From Folioceros fuciformis (taxonomy: Eukaryota), in assembly GCA_049999805.1 (NCBI GenBank), contig JBNGIO010006348.1, forward strand, positions 99,554 through 163,553: a stretch of DNA of 64,000 nt, given 5' to 3'. The translations under genes were made by a program, and so were the position numbers. This document shows, in pieces, positions 21,808 to 61,140 of this stretch; position 1 is the stretch's first letter; each line of letters starts with the position of its first letter. Under the pieces are notes generated by a model that was not told where the DNA came from, ran no database searches, and saw nothing but the letters and a program-made list of their open reading frames with translations.

Positions 21808-22923
21808 ATGGCGGTAGCGCTGTCTGCTGTGATTGTGGCGGTGTTGGCCCTGTTCGCGGCCAGCAATGTCGCAGGTACGTGGTGACTGGAGATTGTGTGA
21901 GATGGGCTCTGTGTCTGTGAGGCGCACCACCAGCGGCAGGAACTCGGGTGGTGACAGCCCATCGTCTGATGAAGCTCGGAGTGCTCGAACCTGGGATTAA
22001 TTTCGATACCGATCGCACTTGCTTGCAGCCGCAGCGTGGAAGCCGAAGCCGTGTAGCCAGGGGTACTACCCGGGTTGCATCAAGGACGATCCTGTCTTCG
22101 TCGGTAGCGACGGGAAGCCCTTCTACTTCCACGGCCACAAGGATGCCGACTTCTGCATCGTCTCCGACTCCAACCTGCACGTGAATGCCCACTTCATTGG
22201 CCGCCGGGCTGACCACATGTCGCGCGACTTCACATGGGTTCAGTCCCTGGGATTCCTCTTCGGCGGCCACCAGTTCTACGTGGGCGCCAGCAAGGTGAGC
22301 CCACACTAGGACATCCTGACCAGTCTGCACGTTTCTGGACGTAATCGATCAGCACGTTGATAATCTCCGAATCGGTATGGCTGCAGGTTGCCACTTTTGA
22401 CGAGTCCGTGGACTACCTGGTGATGTCCCTGGACGCCTTCCCGATCCTCATCCCGCAGGTGAAGGGCGCCGCCTGGAGCGCGCCCCAGGCCGGCCTGATT
22501 GTCACCAGGTTCCAGGCCTACAACGGGGTTATCATCGAGGTGGGGGACCAGTTCTCGCTCTCCGTGCTGGTAGTGCCCGTCACTGAAGCCGACAACAACC
22601 GCCACGGCTACGGCATCACCCCGGACAACTGCTTCGCCCACTTGGAGCTCAACTTCCAGTTCAAGGCGCTCACGCCGTCCGTGTCTGGGGTGTTGGGCCA
22701 GACCTACGCCCCCGGCTTCCAGCACCAGCAGAAGGAGGCGGGCCAGAACATGCCCGTGCTCACCCAAGAGGCCTCCTTCCTCTCTTCCAACCTCATGTCC
22801 ACCGACTGCAAGGTCGCCAAGTTCCGAGGCCACATCTCCACCGAGGTCAATGTCGCCGATCTCCCTGAGACCACTTGTGCCGGTGGCTCCGGCAGTGGCT
22901 TCGGCTTGGTCTGCCGTCGCTGA
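21808..22923 (+). CDS. Root cap / LEA-related secreted protein (Root_cap domain), copy 1
   Basis: Exons 21808-21874 (signal peptide MAVALSAVIVAVLALFAASNVA), 22029-22294 (DDPVFVGSDG..FYFHGHKDADFCIVSD..HVNAHFIG..RDFTWVQSLG) and 22387-22923 (DNCFAHLELNFQF..VSGVLGQTY..DCKVAKF..LVCRR). Confidence 0.93.
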
Positions 22924-23430
22924 ATTGAACTCAATGCTAGCCCAGCTAGACAGTAGCTCAAATCATTGCAAGTCTAGAGAGTAGTTTTTATTCAATTAAT
23001 CGAGACAGAGGTGAACTTTTCATTGAGTCCCCAAGACGCCCTGAAAGTCTTGTAAAACAGACTAGCTTTTTCAAACTATCACTTTCTCGTCGACTATGAA
23101 GGGGCAAGACAATGCTTACAACACACCGAACTCTAAACTGTGGCCATACCAGTGGATCTGAAGAGCAACTCCGTTTCATCACATTAAACAAATCTGGACA
23201 TAGTCCAAAGAGATGACATCCCTCATACACCTCAGACGTTTGAAAGTGTAGAATGTAACGCCTGTCCAAGTCGCACAATAATATGAAAATTGATTCCATG
23301 TGTACACCTTGACACATGAATGGCATAATCAGAAAACCTGACTACCTATTCAATGATTAACAAATGAGGCAAATGATAGGCTTCCGCTTCTGATACAGCA
23401 TACTCAGGCCTCTAATTAGTGGATACAAGT

Positions 23431-25988
23431 CTACAGCTGAGGACTTCCCCTGCCACAAGTCAGGGACACTCTCTTTCCTTCGAGCCGAAATTGCGAACTC
23501 CGCTCGATCTGAATGCACAGCAGCACCAAGGCCATGGCACAGTATGAGCGTTTGAGATCGGAAGCAGCCAGCAGAATGTGAAAGGCAGTGCACACTACCT
23601 TGTTCCTTAATTCGGAGTCAGGAGGTAGACCAGTTGCTTCAGTAACACGCTTTTGCAGCCTCTTCAAGCTCATAGTCTGTTCAGGGGCCTGTGCACATGG
23701 CGAACGCCAGTCTGAGTTTGCCATCTCACAAATGAATAAGATGCAGAAAGACACTGTAGCTCCAAAGACATGTACCTCTTTCAAAATTCTCTTGCATACT
23801 TTTTTCCACTTCAACGGTTTTCCGGCTGTTTCAGAAACCACAACGTCATTCATTTCATCATGTTTCCTCTTTCCTGTTGATGCCGTTGCCTCTTTCACAT
23901 CCTGGTCCTCACTGCCCCTTCCAGCATCCACCTCAACCTCATCGTTAAATGTAGTCTTCTTTCCCTTAAACCGAGCTCCTCCAACTTTGAGGGTACGGTC
24001 CCCAATACCAAGTCCTCGCTTGCCAGTCGTGGCCTTGTCCTGCGATGTAGGATTTCTTAGAGCCAATTCCCACAACCTGGACAACTACAAGAAAGGCAAG
24101 TCCACCAACCAAAGATAATGTCACAGCGCATCGTCTCTTTACAAGGAATGCAAATAATCCACCTGCACAAGCTTGTACAGGTTCTCTTGGTCCTGCTCGC
24201 GGAAAGATGTTCTTTCACTGCCATTCTCCCCTGCTCTTGTCTGAGGCCGCTCAGATCCAAGTTCACCAGCCCGTACAAAGCCGAATTTGTTTCCCCACCA
24301 ATCTTGTGGAAGTGGTACCACCGTCACGGGAGCACTGGCTACTTCTGCTTCGGCCTTCACCACCTCCATGAACCCAATCCTGTCCATCTTTTCCTGCTTC
24401 ACTGAAGCTTGGGGCAAAGTACCGAAATTCTGCTGCCTGGGGAGTTCCTGTTTCACAAGCCTATCAACTACCGCGAGGACTTGTTTCACAGGTTTCAGGT
24501 CCAATTCTTCTTTAACCGGTTTCAGGTCCAATTCTTCTTTGACAGGTTTCAGGTCCAATTCTTCTTTGACAGGTCTCAGGTCCAATTCTTCTTTGACTGG
24601 TTTCAACCCCATTGTTGCTTCGTTTTCAACAGATTGTCTGGACTTGATTTCCCTCCTGATGAGTGCTGCCCAATGAAATCCACGACCAAGTGTCAAGTTC
24701 CAAGGTCAGCGCAAACCTCTTGCTGCTAGATGTCTAGATCTCCACTACTTTGACGAAAATGGATTTTATAAAAGCTCCATCTTCAACGATGCCAAACAGA
24801 TAGTCCTACATGCATATCTAACTTCTACTAGCAAGCATACTTCAAAGAACATAGATAGAACTACAAGGTGCACCAGCCAGCACAGGGGTGCATCCAGACC
24901 ACTCTGCAAGCAGAAACAGCTGCCACCGAGTTCATCTTCACACAAAAGATCCTTACTCTGCCGAGGTTTCTCGCTTTGAACAGCAGATATCCCCTACACA
25001 AATCATCAACTGAAAACATTAATTGACAGCAGTAAGTGTAAGATGTGACACAAACACGATTGCATACTCACCAGTATAGCTTGTAAATCTTTTGCAGGGT
25101 AGGATTTGACATCTTTACACGCTTCCCTCCTCTTGTACCTAAAGAACCTTGGTTATCTAAAATCACAGTATGATCACCACACTAACTGTTGGCTACTCCA
25201 CACGGGAGCGTAGGTCAGCAAAACCAACCTGCCCTGGGGCCGAGTTAACTTTTTCTCCCCCACTGTCGGTGCATTGGCCTCACTGATCTCTTCCAGGCCA
25301 CCTGCCTGATCTGACCGAATAGTTTGTACAGACAGTACAGAGTATGAAAACTAGGAACCTTTCAGCCCCAGCAACGCTGGAAATTCCTATCTGCCGCACA
25401 AAAACCAGGTGCTAGTCTCCAAACGAAAATTCAGAACTTACCTTCATTTGAGTCCGAAGAAGCCACTTGCTGCCACAATAAAAAAATAATACATACATAC
25501 GAGCGATCAGAACGCAATGGAACACATTCAGCTGATCAGCAATGTCCTTCAACCCAAAACAGCCACTTGTACCACTTTCAAGTTCTTCAGAAGGTTATCA
25601 AAATTGATGATGCTCAAGGACCAGTCCTTGCTAGCTTCCAACCCCAGGCCTGTAAACAGAAACAGAGCTTGGACATGTCATCCCAACGCGACCGCAAACC
25701 CACTAACCGAAAACACACTGATATTATAAGAGTTGCATATGCACCGGAGCAGTCATTCTTCTTCTTCACCCTCAGATGCTCCTTAATGCCCTGTCCGTCT
25801 TTCCCTAATCCTGTCCCTTCCTGCCAACCCTGCACAGCCACAGTAGCAAAGGGATCGGTACACGGAATACCACACATCTAGCCCCATCCTCGACGCAATC
25901 CGTTGACTCCAAGTACCATTTGCTGCATTAATTTGAAGGCCTTGGAGGCCTTCGGTAGTCCTTGGTACATCACCGGGCCCTCCCTCAT
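23431..25988 (-). CDS. G-patch domain nucleolar protein (plant GDP1 / GPATCH4-like)
   Basis: G-patch KAFKLMQQM/GWQEGTGLGKDGQGIKEHLRV; also RPQGRYKRRE, DWWGNKFGF, QDQENLYKLVQ, DKATTGKRGLG and a C-terminal KWKKVCKRILK. Multi-exon. Confidence 0.9.
24484..24606 (-). repeat. 27-bp coding tandem repeat (L-K/R-PVKEELD) x about 4.5
   Basis: ggtttcaggtccaattcttctttgaca-type unit repeated; translates as LKPVKEELDLRPVKEELDLKPVKEELDLKPVKEELDLKPVKQ. Confidence 0.95.
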
Positions 25989-26338
25989 CTTCTCGCCAGC
26001 TCCGGCAGCACAGTCGAGCTTCCAAATCGAATTCTAGCGTTTGCAGCAGCTCATCAAGGCCTACCTCGCCTCACCAAGGGCAAAATGCCCACCACCGTGA
26101 CGACTTTCCTAGCCGCCGGATTATTCCCATGGCCTCCGAGTTTTCTTCGCTACATATATGTAGCCGTTTCAGTCTAGGGGGTTGAAATGTTTTGCACCCT
26201 AGTTTAGCTAAATACGTACAGCACGTATGTACATGTTCCGGAATTGGAACGTGTTAAGAAAACGCTTGTGAGCCCTCGATCGACCCGAAGCCCTAAGTTG
26301 CGAGCGAACGATCCGGTTTGGGTAGCGATCTCTAACGA

Positions 26339-26761
26339 ATGTCTGTGGAGATGGCGATCAGGAGCCAACGGCAGCCGAGCTTGGCGCCCGCCTCCAAGGC
26401 ATGTTTTGGTCGGGGCCAGGATGCGAACAAGGCGACAGTGGCAAGAATCACGCGATGTGAGGCAGCTGAGTATGTGGCAAAATACGTACAGATACGGAAG
26501 CTTTGTGCACAGCGACTTCGGGTGAAATACTTCTCTGAGCAGACTCCCGAGGATCAGCGGTACTATGAAAGTGAGGTGCAAATCGGAGACGTTTTAGTGA
26601 AGGAAAGCAGCGAGGAGCCTTTGGAGGAATTCACTAGAGCACGGGGGCCGTTGGAGGAGGAGGAGGAGATGCAGATGAATTCCTCGCGCATGAGGTCGGC
26701 GCCTGACCTGGAAATGCCTCGCTCCATGAACAGGCTGAAGAGTCAGGCTCGGAAGAAGTAA
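26339..26761 (+). CDS. Small hypothetical protein, divergent from the G-patch gene
   Basis: Intronless 140-aa ORF with an ATG start. The YVQIR..L..KYFS...EVQI....KES segment looks like a remembered uncharacterised plant family, unverified. Confidence 0.6.
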   Translation: MSVEMAIRSQRQPSLAPASKACFGRGQDANKATVARITRCEAAEYVAKYVQIRKLCAQRLRVKYFSEQTPEDQRYYESEVQIGDVLVKESSEEPLEEFTRARGPLEEEEEMQMNSSRMRSAPDLEMPRSMNRLKSQARKK

Positions 26762-27551
26762 GCCTCATCTACCTCATGGATCCATGTGAGGTTCGATTCT
26801 TGGCTCAAGAATTCCGCTGGGATGGGCTGGCCTGGTGCTTGGCGCTCACATCTTGTGTTCCTTCTAAGCCAACAGAAGGATTCTATGAGACAATATGCTG
26901 GTTTCTATGAGGGATTGATTGGGTAAAGCAAGTTGTACTGCAAGACTATCGCGTGGGAGTACTGGCAGGAAGCCGGGGCGACCAGCGTACTGTCTGGCTG
27001 GAGAGGGTGACCGTTCGAGGCGGACAACGTTAAGCGTTAATGCAGTGTTTCGGTGAGACGAGGATCTGTAAGTACTTCGCCCTGACCGCGGAACGGGGAG
27101 GGGCTCGGGGTTGTGTTACGAAGTGGCCGAGTCAGGATTCAGTAAACTGTGTCCAAGCTCACCTCCATCTAAGATAGTAAAGCAGGTTTTCCAAAGCAGC
27201 CAATATTTCTCATATGGCCGACTAGCTGCTGGCTGAACCTAGCCGACGACTACTGCATCGCACGCGGCGCATTGCATTTGGTATTCACCCTGATGGAGGT
27301 AGGTACTTGTGCACATTGTCCCTCAAGGCGTCTTTTGTGCACAGTCCTTGCGCTCGCGTCCCCAAGTATCACTAAATATCTTTTTTAATATCTTTAACCT
27401 CAAAAAGGTTGAAAGGGGAGGTCGTTGGAGCCTTCAAGGGTCCCGGACTTCTTGCCGTGCAAAGAATTGTAGTAGGATTTGCTTGCTTTCTGAGACCGTG
27501 CATTCTGGGACCGTGATTCCATTCCTTGGTTTGATTGGTTCCGTGGTTGAG

Positions 27552-29046
27552 ATGTCAGTGGAGGAAGTGAGTAAATTGTGGAGCCTGGGCATCGGGGTGG
27601 TTGACGATTCCCACGTCTGGAGCCGCATGCCAGTCCACATTTTGGAGCGTGAGATCATGCGATGTCTGCCCGCCTCGTACCCCGTGGTGATCAAGCTGTC
27701 CCAGGTGTGCAAGCGATGGCGGTTGCTGCTGCACCAGGAGTACTATTCCAGAATCCTTAGCTTCTCGTCGGTGGCAGACACAGCAGGGCAGGGCTGGTTC
27801 TTGCAGCTGTTTGTGGTGGGGCAGACGACGCAACTGTTCGCCGCCCTTCATCACCCCAAGCTGGACGTGTGGCAGCAGCTGCCCATGGATCGGAGCTTGA
27901 GCGACTCGCTCCTGATGGTGAGGCTGGATTTCGTGAAGGCCGACAAGGGCCTGCTGCTGTTGAAGAAGTCATTCGTGGATTCCGGGGACCGCGGCAAGGT
28001 GCAGGAGGAAGAGTGGGTGGTGATCAAGGGTCCCCGCTGCCTGGACAACCTTCAGGTCCTGGATAAGGTACCGACCCCGGGTGGATATCCTAGTAGGGTA
28101 CCGGACATGGGCTGGAACATCAGCGAGGCCAACATTTTCTTCACGGTGTCCAGGGACGACACGGTCGCGAGGTACAAGATCATCATCCTAGCCGTGGACA
28201 AGGATGTGAACTGGTTCGTGTCCCAGGTGTACGATTCCACAATGAAGGCCTGGCAGGTGGTGAAGATGGCTCGCCTGGATGAGCGCACCTCTCAGAGTTC
28301 CCTCATGTGGAGCCTCTTTTGTGGTGTCTGCTGCCACGGGGTGCTCTACCTTCTCATCTTCCCACCGGACTCGTATGACCGGTACTATGTGGTGGCCTAC
28401 GATATTCACAACAAGAGTGAGTGAGTGAGCTCAATGCAGTTAGGCAGCAGTGTGTGTTCTCAGTTCATGGGTTGAACCTGCCGTTCTTGGTCAGCAGGTG
28501 TAGTGGACATTCCGGTGCCCACAGACGAGATGCCTCTGCAAAATGGGACGTTGCGGATGTCTTTCTGCCATCTTGTGGAGTGCGGGGGCCGGATTCTGCT
28601 GTTGCTTGATTACATCAATGGCTCCAACGATCCGTTCGAGCGATGGCACGATGCTGAGGGGATCGGGATCTGGGAACTGGCCACGGACCTGGTATCAGGT
28701 AAGTAAACCGATTGCCCACCAGCACGCATTCTCTGGAGTATCGATTCCTCCCCTGACATGAGCTTGCACGGTTTTCACAGGAGCCAGGGATCACTGGGTG
28801 AAGCATGACTCTGTCACTAGAGAGCAGATCAAGGCAATGGAATGCCACCGTGAATTTCTGCGGGATGCCACCTTTCTTGGGGTGGGTGGCCACGTCTATG
28901 TGTATTGCTGGAATCATACCATCAACCAAACTAGATCTATTCTTGTTTACCATGTCGGAAACAAGACGTGGAAGTGGCTGTCCCGCCTTCCAAACCTGGG
29001 CTTCCAGTCCCAGATTTCCTTCTGTCACAGTGCAGTTCACCTCTGA
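27552..29046 (+). CDS. F-box protein with a beta-rich C-terminal domain
   Basis: F-box WSRMPVHILEREIMRCLP...LSQVCKRWRLLL, then YKII, VYDS..KAW, GV.CHGVLY, LVECGGRILL. Exons about 27552-28416, 28498-28698, 28781-29046. Confidence 0.85.
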
Positions 29047-29691
29047 ACTCACGAAGGGCCAGCCCATTGATCAGTGTTCACCGACTGGGTGCACAATCTT
29101 CTCAGCCGGAGATGAAACCGCAGGCTTCGAATGCAAATGCACCCCAAAATGTGATGGAGGGCTCAGAAAGGGCTGGAAGTCTCCTTCTTACATCTAAGTT
29201 TTTCACTATTCTATCCGTCTCCCCCACCATTGGGTGGGTGTTTGTTCCGTGGGTTTTTCATATTTGAAAGCTATGGTGGAAAGTGGCCGCCACGGGCACG
29301 CGGACTGCGAGGCAAATTTTGACTGACTGGCCAACGTTCGTACAAGATTCGCCGAATCGGGTCTCGTACTCTAGTTTTGCATCAACCTCGGCAAATCCAC
29401 CATTAGTTAGTCCATCTCTGTCCAACCTCAGTCGATTACAATAGACTTCTTTTATTGAGATAAATTGTCTTTGAAGCAGTAGATTCCGGTTCAACTCCTA
29501 CTCCCCATATGTGGGTTTATAGCATATGCCTATGACGTCAGTGCATTATAATCAATTTTTTTTACTAAGTTAATAGCCTTTCAAGCAATAGATTAGATTT
29601 CAAGCATAGTGACTACAATAGCACCTAAAATATTATGGTATGGAAGGAGAAAGGGTTTACCTTACCATTGGAGTTGTTGAGGCAGCCTCTC

Positions 29692-29855
29692 CTACCAATG
29701 TTTGACGTCTTATGTATAGCATTAGCCAATGCCTACCAACATTCGTCGTCCTATATATAGCATTATCCAACACCTACCAACGTTCGTCGTCCTATATATC
29801 GCATTATCCAATGCCTACCAACGTTCGTCATCCTATATATTGCATTAGCCAACCC
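29692..29855. repeat. 41-bp tandem repeat x4
   Basis: Unit ctaccaacgttcgtcgtcctatatatagcattatccaatgc with a few substitutions per copy and no spacers. Confidence 0.9.
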
Positions 29856-30189
29856 TCGTTGTAGAGCAATGGAAACCCTCTATCAAAAGAATGCTACAAT
29901 ATACTCCCAATCTGCAACTTACATTGCTTGCTTACAAATTTCAACTTTCCTACACAACAAAGGCTGAATGAAACCAACTGGGCTTGTTTAGAAAACTACA
30001 AGTCCCATGGCTTATGTAATAAAAGTAAGGCTTGTATACAAGTATGTATTTTGATAAATATTAAAGAATGAAAGATTATTTAAAGTATTTATAACTACAA
30101 ATATAAATAACATCTTTCCAATCATCTTGTTGAACCACTCCTCAGGACGAGGTATGGAATCCATGAATAATATTTATTTATCAATACCT

Positions 30190-30633
30190 TCATCTTCCAA
30201 AAAATCCAAAAATTGAAAACCGCAAATAACAATCCTTCGAACTATAATAAGCTTCTGCACTAAACTGACATTCACGTTGAATCAAGTCGCTCAATTGCCT
30301 AATACATTCCTTGCATTCGGCTGCAGAAGTCATAGACTGCAGGTTCGGATTGCACTGAGTATAACCCCAAAACGTTTCTGGAGGCGGCACCACATTAAGA
30401 AAGGTAGATTGTGGTGCTGGATACTGATTACTTGCACCGTCCACCAAGTTGTTCAAAGCAAGCTTGACATAAGGAGCTCTAGGATCAAGTAGCTTAAACT
30501 TTGTGCCACACCAGTGAGCAACATGGGTAGTATTTGGTACTGCTCCCGCATTAATTATCATCAAACAAACAACACTAGACCAAATCAACACATCTTTGCA
30601 AACTCTCATTCTCCTTTTGTCAATCTCACTCAT
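30190..30633 (-). CDS. Secreted single-domain Gnk2/DUF26 (stress-antifungal) cysteine-rich protein
   Basis: Hydrophobic signal segment, then WGYTQC...CKEC...C...CYLRFS, the typical DUF26 Cys pattern. Intronless. Confidence 0.85.
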   Translation of the reverse strand: MSEIDKRRMRVCKDVLIWSSVVCLMIINAGAVPNTTHVAHWCGTKFKLLDPRAPYVKLALNNLVDGASNQYPAPQSTFLNVVPPPETFWGYTQCNPNLQSMTSAAECKECIRQLSDLIQRECQFSAEAYYSSKDCYLRFSIFGFFGR

Positions 30634-31459
30634 ATTGAGAGACCCAACTTTCTTAATCTGAAATCAAATCATCTTACACATGCACAATAAAAAGCGGTTT
30701 CCAGTGCTGAGCTAAAAATCTTCAAGCAACTGCAACTTATTATAGTATCCAGCACGAGACCCAAAGCATAGCTTGGGTTGGAAGTTATTCTGTGAGTATA
30801 ACATGAACAAGACTCCTTATTCTTTGTGTAATATATTTGCACATTAATTGATTCTTATTCACCATGTACTCAAGAAGGATCTACTTTGAGCAAAAAAATA
30901 GCAAGCTCAACCCACAAAGTTGACGATGTCTAAAATACAGCTTTCATAAGGAACTGTAGAGACCATGAGTTGACTAGCATGCTTCCTAGCTATCCTTGGA
31001 TATGTGGCATGTAGAATAGACAAAATCTAATTTACATATATTTTTATATAAGATATATGATATTATCTTTAATTTTAATTAAAATATTTCTAGTTGAATA
31101 AGAAATACCTTGGTAGTTAAAAATTTAGTCTTACTTACCAAGTCATTATGGATTTCTACTTATTAAAAATATATTAAAATAGAATAATTATCATTTAACC
31201 GTAAGCTAAAACCAATATAAAAACCGTCATGTCATGCGATGAACATGATTTCAAAATGCATGCCATGAGGATGAAAATAAGATAGAAGACTTGAAGAATT
31301 TTTACTTCTCATCATTGCAAATTTCATCATCCAATTTGTAAAATGTTCTTCACGTGGAAGTTTTTCACCATGCAAAAAGTGATCTTAAATATAATGAGAA
31401 ATAGATTTTTTCATAAGCAATAAAAATACAAGAGGAAATGAAGACTTGAACATAATTAA

Positions 31460-31630
31460 TCTACTTGAAGAAGGATGAACTATAATTTGACAAGAATTGC
31501 TCTTATTTGAAGAAGGATGAACTATAATTTAACAAGATTAGCTCCTACTTGAAGAAGGATGAACTACAATTCACATTAAGTTGTGGCTGCTTAAAGAATC
31601 ATGAACTAAAATCTGAACAAAATAGCTCTT
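31460..31630. repeat. Degenerate 42-bp tandem repeat x about 4
   Basis: Core t(a/t)cttgaagaaggatgaacta(t/c)aatt recurs at 42-bp spacing. Confidence 0.8.
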
Positions 31631-31865
31631 ATATCTAGTACGTTAATGAGAATTTAAAGTTATGGTTCTCTTAGAAAGTTGCAAGCTACTTAAAACTATA
31701 TCAAATCAACATATGCTAAATGTGAAGATATTTGTACTAAAGTCTTTTTTTCTTTCTTTCTTCAAAAATATTCCCATTTGTTTTAATGGATGGAAACTTT
31801 TCATGAAGACATAGACTATTTTGGAGATTATTAATAGTTTTTTTGTTAATATTGGATTAGGGAAG

Positions 31866-34800
31866 ATGAAATCCTACGGAAATAGTTCGCTTGACTTCAA
31901 ACATGCTGGATTATCATCTATCGGAGAACCTGTAGCAGACACCACTGATAATACCGATACTGACATAAGTGAAAGCCTTTCTGACCAGAGCTTGAGGTGA
32001 TTGTTATACTTAATGCAATTCGGTAAACAAGATGGGCTAGCTTCTCAGCCAAATGGAATACCTGACATATCTATCCATGTGCAATTGCAGACTTGAAAAG
32101 AATGTTGGAGAGGAGTTTCATGATGGTGTACATTGTCGATGCTTCTCATCTTCTGGAACAAATAGCATTTTGGTGACACTTAGAGGTCACAAACATGCAT
32201 GAGTTCTGACATTGATACAAAGGTTAATAGTTAGGTATGAAATCCAACGACTAATTAATGTTGTTGATTAAACAATATAGGATCGGACCTTGTCACCACC
32301 ATAAGAGACCATTTGTTTCACATTTTGGACCAAAACCCAAGTTATTCATCCTTTGATTACACTCTCAAACTGGTACACCTTACCCTACTTCTGCCAATCT
32401 TTACAATCAAGAATTGTATGGAGATATGAGAAGGAGTTCTCTATTGTTGTAGGGTGGAGTTGCATTATATTTGGACACTCGGTTGGGCACTAGGAAAATC
32501 TTGTCTGATTATAAGTAAGGTAGCTAGCGATCTATTCCAAATTCATGGGTTTCTGGGTTCCTAATCAAAGTTTTATGAAAAGTACTATACATTGTGGCAA
32601 GCTTGAATGGTCAATGCACACTTGTCTTACAAACTTCTCTCCAGTTGCAGCTTTAAAGGACCTGAACATTGTCTGATCTAGGTATATCCAAAGATGTATC
32701 ACAGAGAAGAAAACTATTGTTCTTAGGTTGCTTGCAAATAACACCAAAGTTGTTGCTCAATCCAAAAGAATAGAGCCCCCTTATCAAAAGAAAGTGAGTG
32801 CCATGTCTCCAAAACCAACAAAGTGTATCTAATCCATGTACTTGTTTATCCCTACAATGCTTAGTAAACAGCATGGTGTGATTTTCTAAACCTAATTCAC
32901 ATCTATCAATGATGACAGGATGTAGCTTCACATGTGGTTAACAAAATTCCTCAGGTAGCTAAGTCAGCTCCTAGCTTAAATGATATAGAATCTTGTAGTC
33001 CTTCAGTTGAGTAATTATTTCCTTGTGTGTGTGTTGTGTGTTTCTCAGAGTTATTCAACACATTTTCGTAGACTATATTTGCATGTAACCATAAACCAGT
33101 GTAGCATAAGACATGAGTATTTTTCCAACATCAATGAAGATCCTTTTTATTTCAATGTTGTTGTTACATTGTATCCTTCACATTTAGTTGAACTCTTGTC
33201 TTGGGATTAGTCTATGTTTGAACATAATGATGTCTTAGAAGTTTTGTTAACCAATCTAGACTTCATGGTGCTGAGCATTTATGCCCGTATTACTCCCAAG
33301 CAACGTCCTTTATCTTGGGTTGCGAGAACTTATGTTGGTGTGAATTGCTCACATTTCCAATACTTCTCTTTGATATACCACAGGTTCTCATTTGACAGTA
33401 TGATATGTTTAGTGAATTTCCTGGAGATGTGATAACATTCTAGCTCATGAGCAAATCATCTTCTTGCTTAACATATTTTGTGATGGAAATCCTAGGTGGT
33501 GGGGTTGAATTTTGCTCTTTATTCGGGCCAGGTGAAAGGTGGTGATAGGGTTGATGCTACTCTTTTTGGTTGGGCCAATTTTCACTTCCTAGATGAGTCT
33601 GGAGTTATAGAGGATAGAAGAAAGTTTATGAGATTGTGGAACACAAAGCCAATATTTTCTCCCGGTAAGACTCTTATGTTTCAAGCTGTTACGTGTCCTG
33701 TTTTGTGGACATTGAGGTTGGAATACTAACATTGGGTTAATGCTAGACACCTAATAATTCTATGATGCAGGCACTGTGATGGAGAATACTTCTGAGTACT
33801 TTTCAGGCATCTTGGATGTTGAACTTGATCAAGTGTTTGATCACTCCATATTGAATAAAATGAGAAGAAGAGTGATTCAGGAGATGGAGGACTTTGATCC
33901 AAGTATATGATTTTTTTTTGTTGTTGAATATGGGATTTGATGAAACTGAGCAAAGAGTGTTTGAGTAAGTGTTTGTTGATATGATAGGTTCCACGGATGA
34001 ATTTGTTCCATCTAGGAAGGAGATGGCCAAAATAGAGAAGCTGCTGAAGAATTATGGTAGATATGATTTAATTGATATGACTTTGTGCAACGAGGTCTGA
34101 GACATTTTCTTCTGAACCTTGACCTGGATTTTCGGATGTCCAGATCCTGTGCACACTAAGATCACAGACGAACATAAGCATCTGTTATGGAGATATCGAA
34201 CTGCTATAAAAGTGATGGCTGATGCTTTGCCTCTATTTCTACAGTCAGTCCGGTGGGACAAAAACTCTCAAGTCGCAGAGGTTCACAGGCATGTCGATTT
34301 GAATGCGTCTAGCCTCACAAGTTCATGCTTGAGAACCTCACGTATGTATGGATTGTGGTTGTCCTCGCCTATAAAAATTCCAATGTTGTGATTTTATTGC
34401 ACCAATCCTCAAAAGGATCATGCAGGCTATTACCTGGTTGGGAGCGCATGCATCCCTTTCAGGCTTTGCAGGTACTGTTGGTGCTCTGTTTCAAGTTCTC
34501 TTTTCATCGAGGTCGTCGAAAGATACGCTTCTTCAAACAATTATTTGACGTGAGCAGCTCTTGCATCCGCGGGTTGGAGATGTCTTCGTTAGAGACTATG
34601 GTGTGCAGCTCTTGGACTCACTCTCTGATGAGGAGGTGCTGTTAATTTTGCTGCAGCTGGTTCAGGTATTGTAGGCTGTTCCTTCGATTACTGGTACTTG
34701 ATCATTTCAGAATAGCAAGCTGTGGCAGAGTATTAACTTCTGAACCATCCTGTGCAGGCATTGCAGTACGAGCCCTTTCAAATGTCGGGACTGTTAAGCT

Positions 34801-37188
34801 TCCTCCTTCGAAGAGCGAGTGCAAGTTGGCGGATAGCCAACCAGCTCTTTTGGATGTTGAAGTTGAGTTCCCAGACCAGCCCGAGGAATTACTTACTAGT
34901 AGCACAGAATAACTTCTCTTCTTGCACGTTTTCTTGTTGGTCACGGGGTTGCTAACGAACTCTGCACACCTGCAGGCTCGTGTGCAAGACCCTTGCTTCC
35001 ACACGAAATATCAAGTCTCACTGAAAGAGGCCATCAAAAGTTGGAACGTTCATTTCCAATCAGAGCTGGTAAAGCAGGAATCCTTGGTTGTAAGCCTGGC
35101 GGATATTGCCTTCTCATTGCAGACTGTAGAGCAAAGCAAAAAGCATCAGGGGCTGAGGAGCTCACTGAAGGCTCTTGACTTCACTCCAGTTTCATTACCT
35201 TTGGATCCGAGGTGAAAATCGGACCCAGCCGGGTGGGGTAGATGGAGTGTGAACTTTGTGTCATCATGATGCATGTCATCCAACTTTGTGTCCTCACGAG
35301 GCAGGTTTAGGATGATCGGGTTTGTGTTGGAAAGTTGCTACTGCTCGGATTCGGCAGACAACTCCTCTCTTTGGCTGGCGTTTCGAAGGGCTGACCAAAG
35401 GAAGCCTAAGCCCCATGCTCATACATCACAGCTCCCCAAAGACTCGGAAAGTAGCGCAGCAGGAGGTCTTATTGTAGTTATCTTTAAGATCGGTAAAGAT
35501 CTACGCCCGGACATGGTGGGACTGCAGATGCTTTCCGTTATGGAGAAGGTGATGTTTGTTTCCGTGATGCTTGTCATGCCCTTGGTTCTGCTGTCCTACA
35601 TGTTTGTTGCCGTCATTCATGCCGTTCCCTTGGTTCTGTCAAACTCGTTCTCTGTAACATACAAAACGAAGCATCGAGTGGGACGCAATTGCAGATCTGG
35701 AGAAGGGTCGGCATGGACATGAAGATGACAATCTATAAGTGCATGGCGAATGGACCAAATTTTGGCATGGTAGAAATTGTGCAGGATGCAGAATCTTTGA
35801 CATCCATCACCGAGGTGAGTGAGTGAGTGAGTGAGCGACTGTTATTATGCCTCAGACGGGAAGGGAAATTGGCAGCAATTTCGTCCACAGCTCGTTTGGT
35901 TGGTTAGGTTAGGATGAGTTATACTGATCCGAAGGGTGTCTGGCTGTTCATGCGTTGTGCTTATGGCTGCACAAAATGCCAGGGTACAGGAACAGCGGGT
36001 GCATTGTCCGATTGGCTGTTGGCATACAACAGCACAGGTATCATTAGACTCTGTACCCTGGGATACGACGTCATGATGCAATCAGAAAATGCAAGACACT
36101 GTGCTGACCAGCGCTCAAACCCATGGTGTGTCAATAAGAGCTTCAGGCAACAGATATGATGAAGCCGTTAGCAGTCTGATATATTCGTGCGCAGCGTACT
36201 GTGTTGCAACCTGCATTCTTGGTGTTGGAAACAGGAGTGCCGATACAGTTATGGTCAGAAGAACGGGAGAATTTTTCCGTATCCCACAAAGTTTTCCCCT
36301 TTTCTCTCGGGGGGTTTGAGGACTGTAGTGCTTGCTGTACAGGAAAGCCGGTGTGAATGACCTTCGTTCGCTGTACATTAGGTAGTGGGAGTCTGGCCCC
36401 GTCCCTTCGTCGCAGGTGACTAGTACTGGATGTGTGAGCTTGCAATTGGAGCCTTGAACATGCCACGTTTCAGACATTGATTTCAGGCAAATACTGGCCG
36501 AGTTCAGGACGAAACGAAAGCGAGGACAAAGTCGTTTTCTGGTGAGTTGCCTCAGAATGTCCAACAACATCTTTTATCCTTTTGTGCCGAGAATCAGCAA
36601 GCAACAGTTGGCGTCTTATGGGTCCTGACTTGTCTCCCATACATCTGGCCCACTGTGTATTTCCCATGTGCTCCTAAGCATACACATAACTCGTGGGCTT
36701 GTGCAACAGTTCACTCAGCATCTTGCATTTGTGATGGGCGGGGTCTCCGACAAGCGGTTCAAGCTGTTCGAGTACGTGTGCATAGAAGCCTACAACAGAG
36801 TCCGCAACGAGGCCCCATTGCTGCTCAATCTACTTGCATTGGTAACCACCGGCAGGCTCATGAAGTGCAACTGTAGCCCTAGGCCAGGAGTCAGGCTGCT
36901 ACTTGATAATTAACACACACCAGTACCAGCGCATCCAATAGGGCTGCCAGATAATCTACAGGTCCTGAAATATGAGGTTTGTTTCCATGTTCGGCCATGC
37001 AGATGGTGTCCAGTGGCGTTGCCGAACTGTCCAACCCCAAAGACGTGAACCACGTGAGGCAGACTCTCCAGCTTGACAAGAGTGACGTCGACGCTGGACA
37101 CAAGTTCAGGAAGTGGATACACACCAGCCTCAAGCAAGGAGCCACATTCCTCTCCAGGTGTCGTGGATGTGCATCACAAGTGAGCTAA
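31866..37188 (+). CDS. Class I/II-type phosphoinositide 3-kinase homologue (RBD-C2-helical-kinase), probable pseudokinase
   Basis: Hand-spliced, phase-compatible exons give an RBD-like DYTLKLGGVALYL..LSDYKYIQRCI (32281-32793); C2 LLHGAEHLC..WCELLTFPILLFDIPQVVGLNFALY..FGWANFHFLD..MRLW; helical DPVHTKITDEHKHLLWRYR..LPLFLQSVRW..LLQLVQALQYE..FLLRRA..IANQLFWMLK; kinase IFKIGKDLRPDM..KIW..GMVEIV..SCAAYCVAT..GVGNRSADT..HIDFR..MVSSGVAELS. The start codon is tentative. Confidence 0.88.
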
Positions 37189-40100
37189 CACAACACCACC
37201 TTTGCGGATGAACTCTCTTTCACACCCACATGCTGACAAGGCCCTGTGTGTGCAAAGGACGGAGACATCCATCTCTGCCACCCTAGCCACTCGGTAGCAC
37301 CGGAGCTTTGTAGGTGAACCACATACCAAATTCTGGGAGAGCCTCTGTTATGTAGTCCGTGAGTGATAGTTTTGATGAGTCAGTGCTCCTTTCTACCACA
37401 CTGCCACTACCCTGACATCTGGACCTCGTCTAACATTGGCTAAACTCGGCCTTGGAAGAGGCCTACCCTGATTAATCCAAACTCCAAACACGACAACACA
37501 AGAATCTACACTTGGGCTCGCATCCTGGTGTGGGCTAATAGCAGAAGTGGCAGCTCAGGATGCGTCGCCCACATCCCTTACTTTCCTTGCAGCAGGAGCA
37601 TCCTCCAAAAGATACTCCATGGGAATTTACAAAACTGGAGGAATCTCGGCCCGTTCGTTGATCGTAAGTGTGGTTGACTTACTTTCCCTTTCAATACATG
37701 CCGTTCCTTTTTGTTGACAAATTCTCACCTGTTCTCGTCCGACCGACAGCTCGGTTACTGATTCCTTCGAATTCCTGCTCAGTCAACCCCATACGGTTCA
37801 CTCACCCTCCGAGTTGGAGGTGCAGGAAATATTTAATAATACTTTTTCGTTTTTGTTTTTGTTTTTTATTTTTAAATAATATTTTTTTCTGCTTTCTGCT
37901 ACCACTCAAGCCAGCAAGTAGTATGATCCAAAGATTAACAGGGTCCACATTTTTCCCGTTTCCAAGGTCTCCCTCCTCGTGTTGTGCAAGTTGTGAGATG
38001 GAGCAGAATTTAGAGCAAGCTTGCCCTCTAGGAAACCCACCTCCACTTTTNNNNNNNNNNCACTTTTGGGCGTCCCTTTCTTTGGAAGGAAAGGGAAGCT
38101 GTCTCCTGCAATGCACCGGCATCCATCATCAAACAAAACATTCCACAGCAGCACCAAAAGTTGTGAAAGGTGCCAGTGGTGTGAGATATCATCCTCCGTA
38201 GCACACTCCAAGGCTTTATGACCAATCAAGCCATTAATTTATTGATTAAAGTACCTGATTATAAAGGCAATTCGGTTACGCACAGGAGGAGGAGTACAGT
38301 GCTGGTACTGGTGAGTGATACACGGTGGGGTGGGGTCCCTGCGTGTTGTGGGGTAGGAAATAAAATAATTAGGTAGGAAAAGGAAAAGAGGAAAAAAGAA
38401 AAGTGTGTGTGGCAGTGATGCGGATACCGGAGTTGTTTGTTTGTCGTGAGGCGATTTTATTTAAGGAGGACGATGAGGTGATGTCTGGTTGGTGAGAAAA
38501 TGGGTCCGGGTTTGTTTGATTCTGGCCTTACGGTTGCCTGGAGTTATTTTTCATGCGGGAGGGTGAATTCCGGAGTTACCAAAGGGAGGGTAAAGCGGGG
38601 CCTCGTGCCGGACGTGAGGACGACACGCGCTGTGAGCCTCGCTGCCATCGCCCCCGGGTCCTGGCTTGGCGTCCGAGACACCTGGGCAAACACTGTCTGT
38701 CCCAGGACAGCGGCCTGGGCAGAGGGAAAGGAAGGAAGCGAGGCGAGGCGTCTCGTCTTGGACCGGCTCGGACCGGCCCGTTGTGCGATTCACAGGGGCG
38801 GAGGCCTGGGAGGGCGAATCTGTGAGCGTGGCCGGCCCTTCTTCTTCATGACGCGCGTTGTAGGCCATTAGGTACTGCAGCGCAGATCAGGCCACGGCAG
38901 GAGCGGCACGGACTGGCACTGGCACTGGCACTGGCACAGGCACAGGCACAGGCATATTTGGAGAGGCGCGGCCGGTTTCATGTGATGTGCTTGCTTGGCA
39001 ATGAGATGCCACGCTTTCTGTCACCGGACTCCTCCGTGCTGTACAGCGGCTGGGAGCCGCTTTCTCCGGGCGTGAAATCATCTTTTGGGGATGTGCGGCG
39101 GATGGTGTGACGCTGCGCTGCTTCTTGTCCCTTGCTGTGTCTGGGGAGGTGGTTTTCTTGCCAGCCGGAGCCGGGGTTGAGGCCGGGGCTGGGGCTGGGG
39201 CTGGGGCCAAGGTTGCTGCTTCTCTTTCTATATACTCGTGCTTCGCGCATTGGAGGGAGCACTTCGCAACTGCTGCTCTCGCCTCGGGCTGGGCTATTTC
39301 AAGAGTCATTCACACAGGCGCTGCCCCACTCCAGTCGCACCCACCTGCTGCCTAGCCTGCTTTTGCGAAATCGGCCGGGGCCGCTGCTAACCCCACGTGC
39401 TTTTGTGTGTGCGCACCGCCTGGGCGGACTGCATTGGATCGGAGACTGTGCCGTGCTCTCTCTCGGCCTTGGCTGGCTTTGTTTCAAGCTCCAGGGTCTG
39501 TAGCCGAGGTATTTGAAGGCGGCTCCGTGTGGTTGTGCACCCTCGTCCAAGCTCTCGTGTGCGCCCCGCGCTGCTGCAACGGCTGTTTCTGTTGCTGTTA
39601 CTGCTGCTGCTGCTGCTGCTGCGGTGGAGGAGCAGGAGGAGGAGGATTCCAGAGCAAGTGGAAGAGCAAATCTGGCATCAATCAGTGATGTCCTCCTCCT
39701 GTCTTTCCAGTCAAGGCTGCCCTACGGTGTACCACGGATTGGGCTCTTGCAATTGGAAGTGCTGTTGATCTGCTGCCGCTTCCTTACGACACGGGCCTTC
39801 ATGCCTGCCGTGCCGTGTGAGCTTCAGCTTTTGCCCAACAAAAGTACTTGAATAGCGGGAAGAAAGAAGGATACCGAGCTTAATTGCTTACCGAATCTAT
39901 GAGCTCTCTCTCTTTTGTCACAACTCCAATGGCATTCTTTCCAGACGACACCCAGTAAGAATTTCCCTACTCGCACAGTAGTTCGAATCATGAAATGCTG
40001 CCTTGAGCTTCAACTTGTTGTCTGCTTCGTGCACCCGTCACCTGCATTAGTCTTTGCGTGCTTGCAAGCAACAAGTGTGTTGTAGATGAACACACCTGTC

Positions 40101-40439: not shown

Positions 40440-41651
40440 ATGGGTTCAACGCCGGAGGCCAGACCCTCCCTGTCCAAGGACCTCAGCCCATCCAAACCAA
40501 GGAACGCCCAAGTCACAGACTCATCAAGCGTGGAGCAGCCGCTGCACAACCTCAAGATCAGCATAGTGGATCTGGAGGCGTCTCTCTTCTGTGTCAAAAA
40601 TGCGCTGGACTTCAACGTGTGCAGCAAACCGATTGACGGATCCGGGGTGGGCGCCCACACTCTGGCAGTCCACCCCGCTGCTGCAGATCCTCCCAACCCG
40701 GACAAGCTTCAGCTAGAGACGGGCCCGGACTACTCGCAGCGAGCTCCATGGCTGAGGGCAGCCCTGCTAGGAGGAAACGACGGCCTCGTCTCCACTGCGT
40801 CTCTCCTCATGGGAGTCGGGGCCGTGAAGGATGATGTCAAGTCCATGGTCATCACAGGACTCGCCGGGCTCGTGGCCGGCGCCTGCTCCATGGCCATAGG
40901 GGAGTTCGTGTCCGTATACTCGCAGAAGGATCTAGAACTCTCGCAAGTGAAGCGGGAGATCTCTGATTTCAAGCGGGGCGGGCCTGAAGCCCACGCCAGA
41001 AAGCTCGAGGAGCTGGTGGACGTGTTCGTGCAGCGAGGCCTCAGCCAGGCTCTGGCCAGGCAGGTCGCGGAGGAGCTTTCCAAGGGCGAGGATGTGGCCA
41101 AGGTTCACGTCCAGGAGAGGCTCGGCATCAATTTGGACGAGCTTGCCAATCCCGTGCAGGTACAGTACAGTTCAACACTTCCTCCTCCTTCTGCTCCTTC
41201 TAAGGAAACGCAGCGAAGATTAGAACACACAACCTCTGCTCTGCAAAGCCAATCCATCTGCCACTCAACTACTTTTCGGACATCACCATAACAAGTTTCC
41301 TGCATCGCGTGTTGCCAGACGTTGTGGTGATCAGCACGAATAGCTCACAGTCTCACTCTTCTGTTCTGTGGGATTGTGAACCCCCTGCAGGCTGCACTGG
41401 CTTCAGCATTGTCGTTTTCGGTGGGAGCGATGGTGCCGCTTCTGTCGGCAGCCTTCATCTCGCAGCACATGGCGAGGCTGGTGGTGGTGGTAGTGGTTTC
41501 CACAATTGCTCTGGCAGTGTTCGGATCGGCGGGTGCCATGGTCGGGCGAGCGCCCGTGCTAAGAGCTGCAGCCCGCGTGGTTGTGGGTGGATGGGCAGCC
41601 ATGGCCGTCACGTACGGGCTGCTTATGACGTTCGGCTCAGCAGGAGTGTGA
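40440..41651 (+). CDS. Vacuolar iron transporter family (VIT1/CCC1/VTL)
   Basis: DYSQRAPWLRAALLGGNDGLVSTASL, AGLVAGACSMAIGEFVSVYSQ, NPVQ/AALASALSFSVGAMVPLL. Exons 40440-41159 and 41391-41651. Confidence 0.95.
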
Positions 41652-42508: not shown

Positions 42509-44634
42509 ATGATCTTCCTCCAGTTGCCTGTGGAACATACTTGTGAAAAGAGATGGGATGAACAGCTCCCTCACCACTAGACAGCGTGCATACTCTGACA
42601 GTGTTTGTTCACTGTCGTGTGCAACGAATGGAATCATGAACTACTCCTCGAGAAAGACTTCATAGGCTACTGTACTGAATCATAGGCTACTGTACTGAAT
42701 CGGATTGGATTCAGCGACGACAGACGAAGCCAGAGCCTCCGGAGCATGTGGTCTGAGGGAAGTCGACCACAGAGACCTCGCTGGAGACTTGTCCTCGGAA
42801 ATTGGCGACCTTGCAGTCGGTGGACATGATGTTCGAAGAGAGGAAGGAGGCCTCTTGGGTGAGCATGGGCATGCTCTGCCCGGACTTCTGCTGCTGCTGC
42901 TGGAAGCCGGGAGCGTAGGTCTGGCCCAGCACTCCTGACACGGACGGCGTCAGCGCCTTGAACTGGAAGTTGAGCTCCAGGTGGGCGAAGCAGTTGTCCG
43001 GGGTGATGCCGTAGCGGTGGCGGATGTTGTCGGATCCGGTGACGGGCACGACGAGCACAGAGAGGGAGAACTGGTCCTCCACCTCGATGATGATGCCGTT
43101 GCGGCTCTCGGACCTGGTGACGGTCAGGCCCGCGTGGGGAGCGGTCCAGGCTGCGTCCTTCACCTGCGGGAGGAGGATCGGGAAGGCGTCCAGGGACATC
43201 TCCAGGTAGTCCACGGCGTTGTCGAAGGTGGCCACCTGCAGCCACGGCATTGATTCCACGCACGCGTTGAGCACTTCTGCTCGGATTCGGATGGGTTTAG
43301 CGCAACAACGGATCCCGATGCTAAGGGGTCCGGAGGCGGTAGATGTGTGGGCTCACCTTGCTGGCGCCGACGTACAGCTGGTGATCGCCAAAGAGAATCC
43401 CCAGGGACTGCACCCAGGTGAAGTCCCGCGACATGTGGTCCGCCCGGCGGCCGATGAAGTGGGCATTCACGTGCAGGTGGGAGTCGGAGACGATGCAGAA
43501 GTCGGCGTCCTTGTGGCCGTGGAAGTAGAAGGGCTTGCCGTCGCTGCCTACGAAGACGGGGTCGTCCTTGATGCAGCCTGGGTAGTAGCCCTGGCTGCAC
43601 GGCCTCGGCTTCCACCCAGAAGCTGCAACCAAGTACGAGTAGTATGAGGACTAGTACCAGAACAATTGCCATTGCAACAGTCTAGAGCTTCATCGAGAGG
43701 TGACCTTGCTAGCTAGCTGTAAACATCCCGCTGCTGCACGGAGCAAAACCCATCTCACAGAATCTCTTCCTTACCGTCCACATTGCTGGCCACGGACAGA
43801 ACCAACACCGCCACAATCACAGCTGCCACCTGCACCGATGCCATGCTCCCGAGGGTGGAGCTTGCTTACAACTCTCCAACCGCCTGCTGAAGAAACAGCC
43901 GCTGTGGAAGAAGAAGAGAGTCTGCCTGTAAGGCCGAGCAGGCCGCTCTTTATACTCTCTTCGAGTGTGCGTTGAAATCGACTTCCAGATCGGGCACGTG
44001 CCTCGCTTGCAAGCCATGCAGCGGGGCGGGGCCATCTTCTACTGTCATTTGGTTAACTGGCCAGGCCTCGGGTTGTTTCCGCACTAAAGATACATACCGC
44101 GGCAGCCTCGCTCAGTCGCAGCCTGTCCATGTTCGGGCGCCAATTTCTTTCGTACGTTCTGGGAAACTCCATGGCAAGCATTCTCCGATTCGCCTCTCAT
44201 CAATCATGATTTAAAACACATTTAAGCCCGAGAATGCGGTGCCAGGCCTGTGAATGCGTGCGCCAACTGCACAAGCCTGCCCGCCCTTGTTTAAAGACAG
44301 GTGTTTCGGCCAACCATGGCCTTCCGTCCGTCTTCCAAGTGCATTATTACACGACCTGGCCCAGGCTGGCCTGTGTTGCACCAATCTCCTGGCCCACCAT
44401 CCCGCACTTCAGGGAGTATGTTGACCGGGCTCCTACTTGGTGCATTGCAATATTTGGGCATTTCAGCGATGATTTGTTTGAGATTCTCCGGGAAGTCCTC
44501 GTTGCCATTGGTGCAAAATGCAGTCCACATGGGAAACGTTGCAACCGCATATGCGCCATGCCATTTCATGGCCTGTTTGCATCTCTTGGCTTGATGGCAA
44601 TGTATATTTCAAGCGTGGGACAGACACTCTTCTC
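42509..44634. repeat. Left arm of a ~2.1-kb inverted duplication (right arm about 50089-52236)
   Basis: Reverse-complement match across 3' flank, exons, introns and about 0.8 kb of upstream sequence. Start and stop coordinates are symmetric (43844+50908 = 42711+52041). Confidence 0.92.
42711..43844 (-). CDS. Root_cap-domain secreted protein, copy 2
   Basis: Same 3-exon structure as copy 1; signal peptide MASVQVAAVIVAVLVLSVASNVD; ends FVCRR. Confidence 0.93.
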
Positions 44635-60494: not shown

Positions 60495-61140
60495 CTGCCC
60501 TCATCTTGCCCTTGCCACAGCCACCCCACTTCCACAACAGTCTTCTTGCCGTGCCACCGTACCTGACATAACCTTGCACCGATGGCCTGCCTGGGTCTCC
60601 CCATGCCTCACTTTTCCAACATAGAGCTCCCTTGCCACCCCTACTCCATCCTCTCCACAGCCGCATCACCTCCCCTCCAACTTCCCTCATAAATGCCGTT
60701 CCTTCAAGCCTAGTGCAACAACTAGACAAGTCTCAGGCTTCAGGTAAGCGAAACAAATGACAAGGCCAGGTGAACCACCCCAGAGTCACGGTTCAAACTC
60801 CAACCTCGCACATGCATCCGACCGCAGCACCACTTCGAGAGCACAGTGCTTGTTGCGCTCCATCCATCTTCAGGTCAGACGTGCACATGGCGGCGACGTC
60901 GGGCCGAAGGCGAAACCGGCATCGGCATCGTGTCCAGAGTTTCGCCATTCGCCTTCGGTCTCACGTCCCGTAACGCAAAAAACGAGACCGGTTGACGGAA
61001 TCCCTTCCGTTGTGACAATTTGAGCGGAGGACAGTTTAACCCAGAGATTCCAAAAATGGACGGCTATTGGTCTGTGAGTAGAGGTCAGGTACGCGTGAGG
61101 GAAGAGTTTCGCCGCTGGCTACAAAAACAAACATAGGTTG

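Follow-up and report, generated by a model that had tools for sequence, protein, structure and literature searches.

A class I/II-type phosphoinositide 3-kinase homologue with a degenerate active site in a land-plant genome

Do land plants carry phosphoinositide 3-kinases (PI3Ks) other than the class III enzyme Vps34 and, where such a gene is found, does it still encode a lipid kinase? The question is raised by a stretch of 64,000 nucleotides of contig JBNGIO010006348.1 (the window), in which an earlier inspection of the letters, hereafter the sequence-only reading, recognized the exons of a PI3K with a Ras-binding-like domain and proposed a small-GTPase and lipid signalling module. The gene is an intact, spliced class I/II-type PI3K homologue in a land-plant genome; its active site is degenerate, a feature that the sequence-only reading overlooked, and the motif losses strongly suggest that its product has ceased to act as a lipid kinase. 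This report gives an account of the gene, its active site and its relatives, as well as the competing explanations of its function and origin.

In the textbook account, plants have Vps34 only, and passages in Brown and Auger (2011; PMC3024228) name class III as the sole PI3K of plants. The sequence-only reading likewise took land plants to have class III only, a statement that has a published exception: in the parts of their article drawn on here, Philippon et al. (2015; BMC Evol Biol 15:226, PMC4617754) describe a class I catalytic subunit of Selaginella moellendorffii as the sole class I/II sequence in Archaeplastida, discuss retention, transfer and contamination as its source and, from its plant neighbours, reject contamination. 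These parts leave the exception unexplained, and the terms 'catalytic residues', 'kinase-dead' and 'inactive' have no occurrence in the article, supplements excluded. The Selaginella gene, compared here by its published description only, resembles the gene in the window in its class I/II type, its land-plant host and its plant-gene neighbours. Full-text searches of the literature turned up no land plant besides Selaginella for which a gene of this type has been reported, and the gene in the window probably represents the second land-plant lineage with a class I/II-type PI3K. A second gene of this kind bears on whether the plant ancestor possessed a class I/II PI3K that was then repeatedly lost, or whether genes of this type came in by acquisition.

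Gene model and domain architecture

Three-frame translation of positions 31500-38500 shows a + strand chain of open segments that, when joined at AG and GT, gives a single open frame of 23 exons and 923 codons, from an ATG at 31866 to a stop at 37186-37188 (Table 1). The 22 introns are short and host-like (43-195 nt), with AG at all 22 acceptors and GT at 20 of the 22 donors, the remaining two being a GC after 34288, which is predicted only, and a non-canonical donor after 34862. Exon 6 ends at either 33005 or 32954, the former implying an intron of just 43 nt. Exons 32281-32372, 32453-32514 and 32682-32793, which had been quoted with their peptides in the sequence-only reading, were reproduced at identical coordinates, and its broader claim of a chain of short, phase-compatible exons encoding Ras-binding (RBD), C2, helical and kinase domains is borne out by the open 23-exon model and by domain profiles. 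Two C2 exons absent from that description (33049-33186 and 33276-33383) were located through tblastn hints with fetched homologues.

Evidence for transcription comes from Logan contigs of public sequencing runs. Two DNA-type runs from one sample contain 97-98% of the sampled words and, since they may be the assembly's own source, are not treated as independent support. Run X3, which derives from another sample and another study of the same organism and whose label as RNA is a guess, contains 9% of the sampled words. Its contigs are identical to the window (0 differing letters) and hold three joints that are absent from the DNA runs, all three coinciding with exon borders predicted by homology. 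Two of the joints define GT..AG introns; the third, a 113-base skip, permits no GT..AG placement and fits AG..GC, GT..CA or TT..AG, the mRNA staying in frame under any placement of the cut. A further X3 contig runs unspliced from 37017 to 37318 and so marks the stop at 37186 as the true end of the open reading frame (ORF). The 3' part of the gene is transcribed and spliced; the interval 31866-34760 is without X3 cover, which counts neither for nor against expression of the 5' exons. A fourth run, X4, gave nothing beyond short low-complexity matches.

The helical and kinase domains were recognized by Pfam on individual exon segments, PI3Ka matching 34558-34668 (E 3.2e-8) and PI3_PI4_kinase matching three kinase exons (E 7e-8, 7e-4 and 0.024); among the latter, only the match at 36146-36280 (E 7e-8) is above the Pfam cut-off, that at 35695-35814 (E 7e-4) scoring 20 bits against a cut-off of 27.1 bits. 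Single RBD exons, single C2 exons and the last exon had no Pfam match. Similarly, in phmmer searches of PDB, the RBD exon 32683-32793 returned 0 matches at E up to 10 and the C2 exon 33496-33666 chance matches only. Both domains were detected, however, when profiles built from homologues were run against the spliced model. A profile assembled from 12 RBD regions delimited by Pfam, of which 11 score above the Pfam cut-off and one slightly below it, matched residues 90-147 with 20.9 bits (E 3.7e-5), as against a best score of 9.2 among 2000 shuffles and of 4.0 among 483 ORFs of the window; the matched part, the C-terminal half of the domain, is the segment that had been recognized in the sequence-only reading. 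Moreover, the phmmer alignments to P0049 of Entamoeba and to the class IA sequence P0054 extend through the Pfam RBDs of these proteins. The Ras-binding-like domain claimed at the outset is therefore upheld at the level of sequence, the match being a modest one. A profile of 16 Pfam-validated C2 regions matched residues 228-352 with 44.3 bits (E 1e-12), the best shuffle reaching 8.2.

Only about 60 residues precede the RBD-like region, and neither an adaptor-binding nor any other N-terminal domain was found upstream, nine homologue N-termini (three of them class IA) giving nothing better than E 0.11 when compared with 28401-32100 by tblastn. At the other end, the ORF stops 18 residues past the last helix region of the kinase domain and thus lacks a tail of PX and C2 domains. 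The order of RBD-like, C2, helical and kinase domains without additional ones makes the architecture that of the class I/II core.

Degenerate active site

Within this well-preserved framework, the residues that serve catalysis have been extensively replaced. In the ATP-site motif, codon 35486-35488 still encodes the Lys, but the first Asp has become Lys (35495-35497) and the Gln has become Pro (35507-35509). In the catalytic loop, the HMMER alignment to p110gamma places GVGNRSADTVMV opposite GIGDRHNDNIMI, such that GVGNRSADT faces GIGDRHNDN, with replacement of the Asp by Asn (36230-36232), the His by Ser (36236-36238) and the Asn by Thr (36245-36247). HIDFG-H/K reads HIDFRQ, with the metal-binding Asp kept, the Gly changed to Arg and the His to Gln, and the His of the C-terminal helix has no counterpart in the window protein when aligned with 13 homologues. 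The loop pattern could be found in 148 of the best 150 library matches, and D-R-[H/N]-x-x-N is present in 148 of these 148. The replaced Asp, His and Asn of the loop are the positions mutated for kinase-dead p110 and Vps34.

The same contrast emerges from a wider set of 60 near-invariant alignment columns, defined as those that do not vary across the 19 other rows, one row excepted. Of these, the window protein keeps 47 (78%) and loses 13 (A477G, R544K, P633S, D676K, Q680P, T727S, F762L, D780N, H782S, N785T, G800R, G804A and the C-terminal His), with at least seven of the 13 losses falling in the ATP, catalytic and DFG motifs; elsewhere, the number of losses is 0-8 in the 18 class I/II rows and 11 in the class III-type row. 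Several of the replaced codons lie two base changes away, for which reason the loss of catalysis looks old, with the frame still open.

With the loop Asp, His and Asn, the Gly and His of the DFG motif and two residues of GDDLRQD replaced, the lipid signalling module of the sequence-only reading is unlikely in any canonical sense, and the gene is no evidence for PIP3-type signalling in plants. The question thereby shifts from the synthesis of PIP3 to the use of an RBD-C2-helical-kinase shell, and the case cautions that domain content alone is insufficient to annotate such genes as active PI3Ks.

Table 1. Coordinates of the PI3K-like gene, its domains, motifs and RNA-supported introns, and of the compositional block that overlaps it
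Feature	Position in the window	Strand	Basis or remark
Whole PI3K-like coding region	31866..37188	+	In-frame splice model; colinear phmmer alignments to full-length PI3Ks
Exons 1-6	31866-31996, 32091-32185, 32281-32372, 32453-32514, 32682-32793, 32919-33005 (or -32954)	+	
Exons 7-12	33049-33186, 33276-33383, 33496-33664, 33771-33902, 33988-34056, 34144-34288	+	
Exons 13-18	34426-34471, 34558-34665, 34758-34862, 34976-35211, 35305-35548, 35695-35814	+	
Exons 19-23	35983-36037, 36147-36278, 36474-36541, 36710-36841, 37003-37188	+	
Ras-binding-domain-like region, exons 2-5	32091..32793	+	RBD profile (hidden Markov model, HMM); phmmer alignments
PI3K-type C2 domain, exons 7-10 (model residues ~228-352)	33049..33902	+	C2 HMM; tblastn hints to exon with W-x-E-x-L...D-h-P motif
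Helical (PIK accessory) domain and linker to kinase N-lobe, exons 12-16	34144..35211	+	Pfam PI3Ka; alignments
PI3/PI4-kinase catalytic domain, exons 17-23	35305..37188	+	Pfam; PDB phmmer
ATP-site motif F-K-x-G-D-D-L-R-Q-D, here FKIGKDLRPD	35486..35512	+	Alignment with 13 well-aligned homologues
Catalytic loop G-x-G-D-R-H-x-x-N, here GVGNRSADT	36221..36247	+	HMMER alignment to p110gamma
DFG-His motif, here DFRQ	36479..36490	+	Alignment with homologues
Intron, non-canonical ends	34863..34975	+	113-base skip at 34860-34976, run X3 only
Intron, GT..AG	36542..36709	+	Joint 36541/36710 in RNA-type contigs, run X3 only
Intron, GT..AG	36842..37002	+	Joint 36841/37003 in RNA-type contigs, run X3
AT-rich, CpG-depleted block	29500..34100		Spans Stress-antifung ORF, spacer and 5' half of the gene (RBD and C2)

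Relationship to known PI3K classes

By its sequence, the protein is a class I/II-type PI3K homologue and is not Vps34-like in either architecture or activation-loop motifs. When the catalytic-loop exon was searched against PDB with phmmer, p110gamma ranked first (39 bits, E 3e-9), followed by p110beta and p110delta (38.4 bits), class II C2alpha (33.7 bits) and p110alpha (33.4 bits), and no Vps34 chain occurred in the best 60 of 98 matches; p110 also ranked first, weakly, for the N-lobe exon and for the last exon, and so heads the PDB matches of all three kinase exons searched. When the 45-residue catalytic exon was searched exhaustively with HMMER, 584 matches were obtained at E up to 1e-3, among which there was no close orthologue, the best showing 57% identity over this one exon and none having an E below 1e-10. 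Of the 29 matches that were looked up by name from the best 150 of the 584, none that bears a name is from a plant. A word-indexed protein search with exons 35306-35548 and 36146-36280 returned no match, which is weak evidence only.

Against full-length relatives, the spliced model scored highest with P0002 (398 bits), then with P0139 (350), P0088 (340), P0017 of Pelomyxa schiedti (338), the animal class II sequence P0059 (306) and P0049 of Entamoeba marina (274), whereas P0122 of Durusdinium, which has the class III architecture of C2, helical and kinase domains without an RBD, reached 174 bits in three stretches. Overall, the class I/II rows span 146-398 bits (the best-matching ones 230-398), and the class III-type P0122 is among the lowest of the 23 tree hits. 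Among the relatives closest to the window's protein, two environmental class-I-like PI3Ks are unusual fusions, P0139 having an extra N-terminal PH domain and P0080 an extra N-terminal RasGAP domain.

A maximum-likelihood tree (24 rows, 828 columns; IQ-TREE, LG+C20) was built from rows picked out of the best 150 matches, as ranked by similarity to the one 45-residue exon, and includes one class III-type row and no PI4K. In it, the window protein stands beside Pelomyxa and Entamoeba (Archamoebae) with support of 84/83, this group lying within a 16-row class-I-like set (82/91), while the animal class II clade (100/99) leaves it out. Its end branch measures 2.32 substitutions per site, i.e. 2.6x the median of 0.9, and its highest identity to any other row is 33% over the kept columns of the tree, or 26-31% in a second alignment. 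The approximately unbiased (AU) test rejects neither placement in the class II clade (p 0.12) nor a pairing with the one class III-type row that serves as outgroup (p 0.23); given these limits of the tree, the case against Vps34 rests on the RBD-like domain, the motifs and the ranking of scores. The kinase motifs that the sequence-only reading had given as LRxDM, KIW and YCVAT are indeed present, as LRPDM, KIW and YCVAT, and are joined by a basic activation loop (R-T-K-R-K-R), as compared to LRQDQ, YCMCT and GNDPRS in P0122. Thus, the assignment to class I/II as opposed to Vps34 made in that reading stands with regard to architecture, motifs and score ranking, but the tree does not separate class I from class II, nor does it exclude class III by itself.

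Comparison with each class refines this picture. Class I p110, as known from animals and from the amoebozoans Pelomyxa and Entamoeba, has the RBD, C2, helical and kinase order in common with the window protein, as well as YCVAT and the basic activation-loop box; unlike p110, the window protein lacks the p85-binding domain, with its ~60 residues before the RBD, and has replacements at the three catalytic-loop residues (Asp, His, Asn), at both the Gly and the His of the DFG motif and at the His of the C-terminal helix, in addition to being at most 33% identical and having a long end branch. Class II (PI3K-C2 alpha, beta and gamma) offers the same RBD-C2-helical-kinase core without an adaptor-binding domain and is not rejected as a placement, but the window protein has no C-terminal PX or C2 and falls outside the class II clade of the maximum-likelihood tree. 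Class III Vps34 has the C2, helical and kinase domains in common, and the window protein is 27% identical to the single class III-type sequence, a level similar to that with the others; it differs by the RBD-like domain ahead of C2 and by the basic activation loop.

Function, origin and genomic setting

What, then, might a protein of this kind do? The reading that we favour, with a little less than even confidence, is that the gene encodes a non-catalytic class I/II-type PI3K homologue that is still constrained and acts as a scaffold. It would be a gene native to the nuclear genome of a non-seed land plant, its product having RBD-like, C2, helical and kinase domains and no adaptor-binding, PX or C2-tail domain; the fold-defining residues are kept and those of phosphoryl transfer replaced, a combination that makes a pseudokinase most likely. 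The protein probably folds still, may bind nucleotide via the kept Lys and the DFG Asp, and would make no 3-phosphoinositides. Its survival as a scaffold or effector could be explained if the RBD-like domain were recruited by a small GTPase, either a Rho-type ROP or a Rab, with the C2 domain possibly providing recruitment to membranes. ROP or Rab is proposed because plants, which have ROPs and Rabs, are not known to have Ras. Of the known enzymes, p110beta engages Rac and Cdc42 through its RBD, as does class II with Rab5, and a role as GTPase effector for the window protein can be put forward only by analogy. TRRAP/Tra1 of the PIKK family has a PI3K-type kinase fold, has lost its catalytic residues and serves as a scaffold; the fold is kept and catalysis lost in both cases, whereas family and architecture differ, and for the window protein scaffolding is conjectural. 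A more far-reaching version, which we regard as unlikely, is a plant pseudo-PI3K node, i.e. a non-catalytic adaptor that non-seed land plants would have inherited vertically from the eukaryotic ancestor and that would read the GTP state of ROP or Rab while its C2 domain and helical-kinase shell organize a membrane complex, the Selaginella gene being a second survivor. If true, such a node would amount to signalling without a counterpart in model angiosperms.

Continued constraint is inferred from 923 open codons, 20 of 22 introns with GT-AG ends, 78% of near-invariant positions kept in spite of the long end branch and losses that cluster in the catalytic motifs. Several observations weigh against a constrained pseudokinase. 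The RBD match is modest, at 20.9 bits, and confined to the conserved C-terminal half of the domain; the RNA-type contigs are thin (depth 2-4) and cover just 34761-35057 and 36497-37318; the RNA-supported introns include one with non-canonical ends, and a GC donor is predicted; and CpG observed/expected is 0.25 in 31866-34100 as compared to 0.56-0.75 elsewhere. The value of 0.25 belongs to a block, 29500-34100, that begins upstream of the neighbouring Stress-antifung ORF and ends mid-gene, with GC of 0.33-0.37 against ~0.5 elsewhere and CpG observed/expected of 0.25-0.42; within the coding sequence, GC at third codon positions (GC3) shifts from 0.36 over the first 1200 nt to 0.56 over the remainder. 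The composition of the block looks like long-term, methylation-driven C-to-T decay, the frame nonetheless being open there. The absence of a close orthologue among the matches, the CpG-poor 5' half, the odd splice sites and the thin transcripts would likewise be expected of a gene that is being lost, and it is possible, if less probable than continued constraint, that we are seeing a decaying relic, a unitary gene that has lost its function and drifts, being open and weakly transcribed merely for lack of time. Besides the features just listed, with GC of 0.37 in the 5' half, the replacement of at least seven universally conserved catalytic positions and the end branch of 2.32 agree with such decay. 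Free drift is harder to reconcile with a frame without a stop or frameshift, with AG at every acceptor and with losses that are not random over the 60 near-invariant positions; in addition, the two-change codons suggest that the frame has stayed open long after catalysis was lost. At the opposite pole, and improbable in our view, stands the preferred proposal of the sequence-only reading, namely an active class I/II PI3K feeding an undescribed pathway from a GTPase to 3-phosphoinositides. In its favour, no domain of the set is missing, the 3' part of the gene shows expression and splicing, a basic K/R activation-loop box resembles that of class I/II, and the ATP-site Lys (Lys 673), the loop Arg (Arg 781) and the DFG Asp (Asp 798) are kept, for which reason residual or unusual catalysis stays conceivable and which also tells against a pseudokinase. 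However, all three loop residues (Asp, His and Asn) have been replaced, together with the Gly of the DFG motif and the His after it, and a loop of this kind occurs in 0 of the 148 motif-bearing matches; changes at these positions serve as kinase-dead alleles in p110 and Vps34.

The origin of the gene is a separate matter, as horizontal transfer from a protist such as an amoebozoan would be compatible with any of the functional readings. Such a transfer deserves serious consideration, at a likelihood of roughly one in three, given the Pelomyxa and Entamoeba neighbours in the tree, the compositionally odd block in which the gene lies and published surveys that, in the parts drawn on here, have no class I/II PI3K in Archaeplastida save Selaginella (PMC4617754, PMC3024228). 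Yet the Archamoebae branch is not well supported, the window row is long and very different placements survive the AU test; identity of at most 33% leaves no near donor, the 22 short introns are host-like, and the sampling is that of the 150 matches that rank best with a single 45-residue exon. Contamination, or a misassembly that fuses foreign to plant DNA, is very improbable. It could be suspected because the two DNA runs are possibly the source of the assembly and because a gap of 10 N (38051-38060) lies 860 bp downstream of the gene. Nevertheless, the independent X3 sample yields spliced contigs identical to the window, DNA-run Logan contigs bridge 32982-37463 as well as 31500-32283, the latter running on further upstream, and a plant Stress-antifung ORF lies upstream in the same N-free block (21401-38050) as the gene, all of which argue for a native gene.

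The plant-gene flanks and host-like introns claimed in the sequence-only reading are confirmed by these neighbours, by the intron lengths and by the relatives of a nearby VIT exon. Directly upstream of the gene is the Stress-antifung (Gnk2-type) ORF at 30193-30663 on the minus strand; Pfam matches in the block 21401-38050 comprise Stress-antifung and F-box, those in the other blocks of the window Root_cap, PPR with E/E+ and WRKY, and a Kelch ORF is also among the neighbouring matches. The best named relatives of the VIT exon (40440-41159, + strand) are in bryophytes and lycophytes, with 52-64% identity to Sphagnum (64%), Diphasiastrum, Riccia, Marchantia and Physcomitrium; Selaginella moellendorffii reaches 56% compared to 64% for Sphagnum, and the window is therefore probably of a different lineage from Selaginella. 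The VIT/CCC1-family exon has a long N-terminal extension and is 73% identical, over its full length, to one Logan protein. In a VIT tree, the two share a very long stem that lies apart from the mosses, liverworts, lycophytes and angiosperms, so that the lineage has no representative among the named proteins; GC content, gene density and intron size permit no more than a guess at a hornwort.

Other features of the window are recorded for completeness. Rfam at gathering thresholds gave 0 matches in the window. Two tandem arrays lie upstream of the PI3K-like gene, one at 29691-29853 with 41-nt units (three 81-nt copies that overlap, spaced 41 nt apart) and the other at 31462-31629, ~240 bp before the ATG, with four copies of a 42-nt unit that are 69-88% identical to the reference copy. 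An ORF on the minus strand at 396-3416 encodes 1006 residues with Gly runs and degenerate D-K-D-G-N / F-D-K-x-G repeats, without a Pfam match at E up to 0.001. The PPR protein at 56874-60500 (minus strand) is intron-free, 1209 residues long and of PLS type, its E and E+ motifs being followed by no more than a stub in place of the DYW deaminase domain. At 22345-22923 on the plus strand, an ORF resembles Root_cap by eye, the overlapping minus-strand ORF 22309-22962 having no Pfam match. Finally, paralogous ORFs of Root_cap or late-embryogenesis type at 42711-43352 (minus), 45255-46121 (minus) and 51400-52041 (plus) form a local, partly inverted cluster, PF06830 being confirmed for 42714-43352 alone and the other two being judged by eye.

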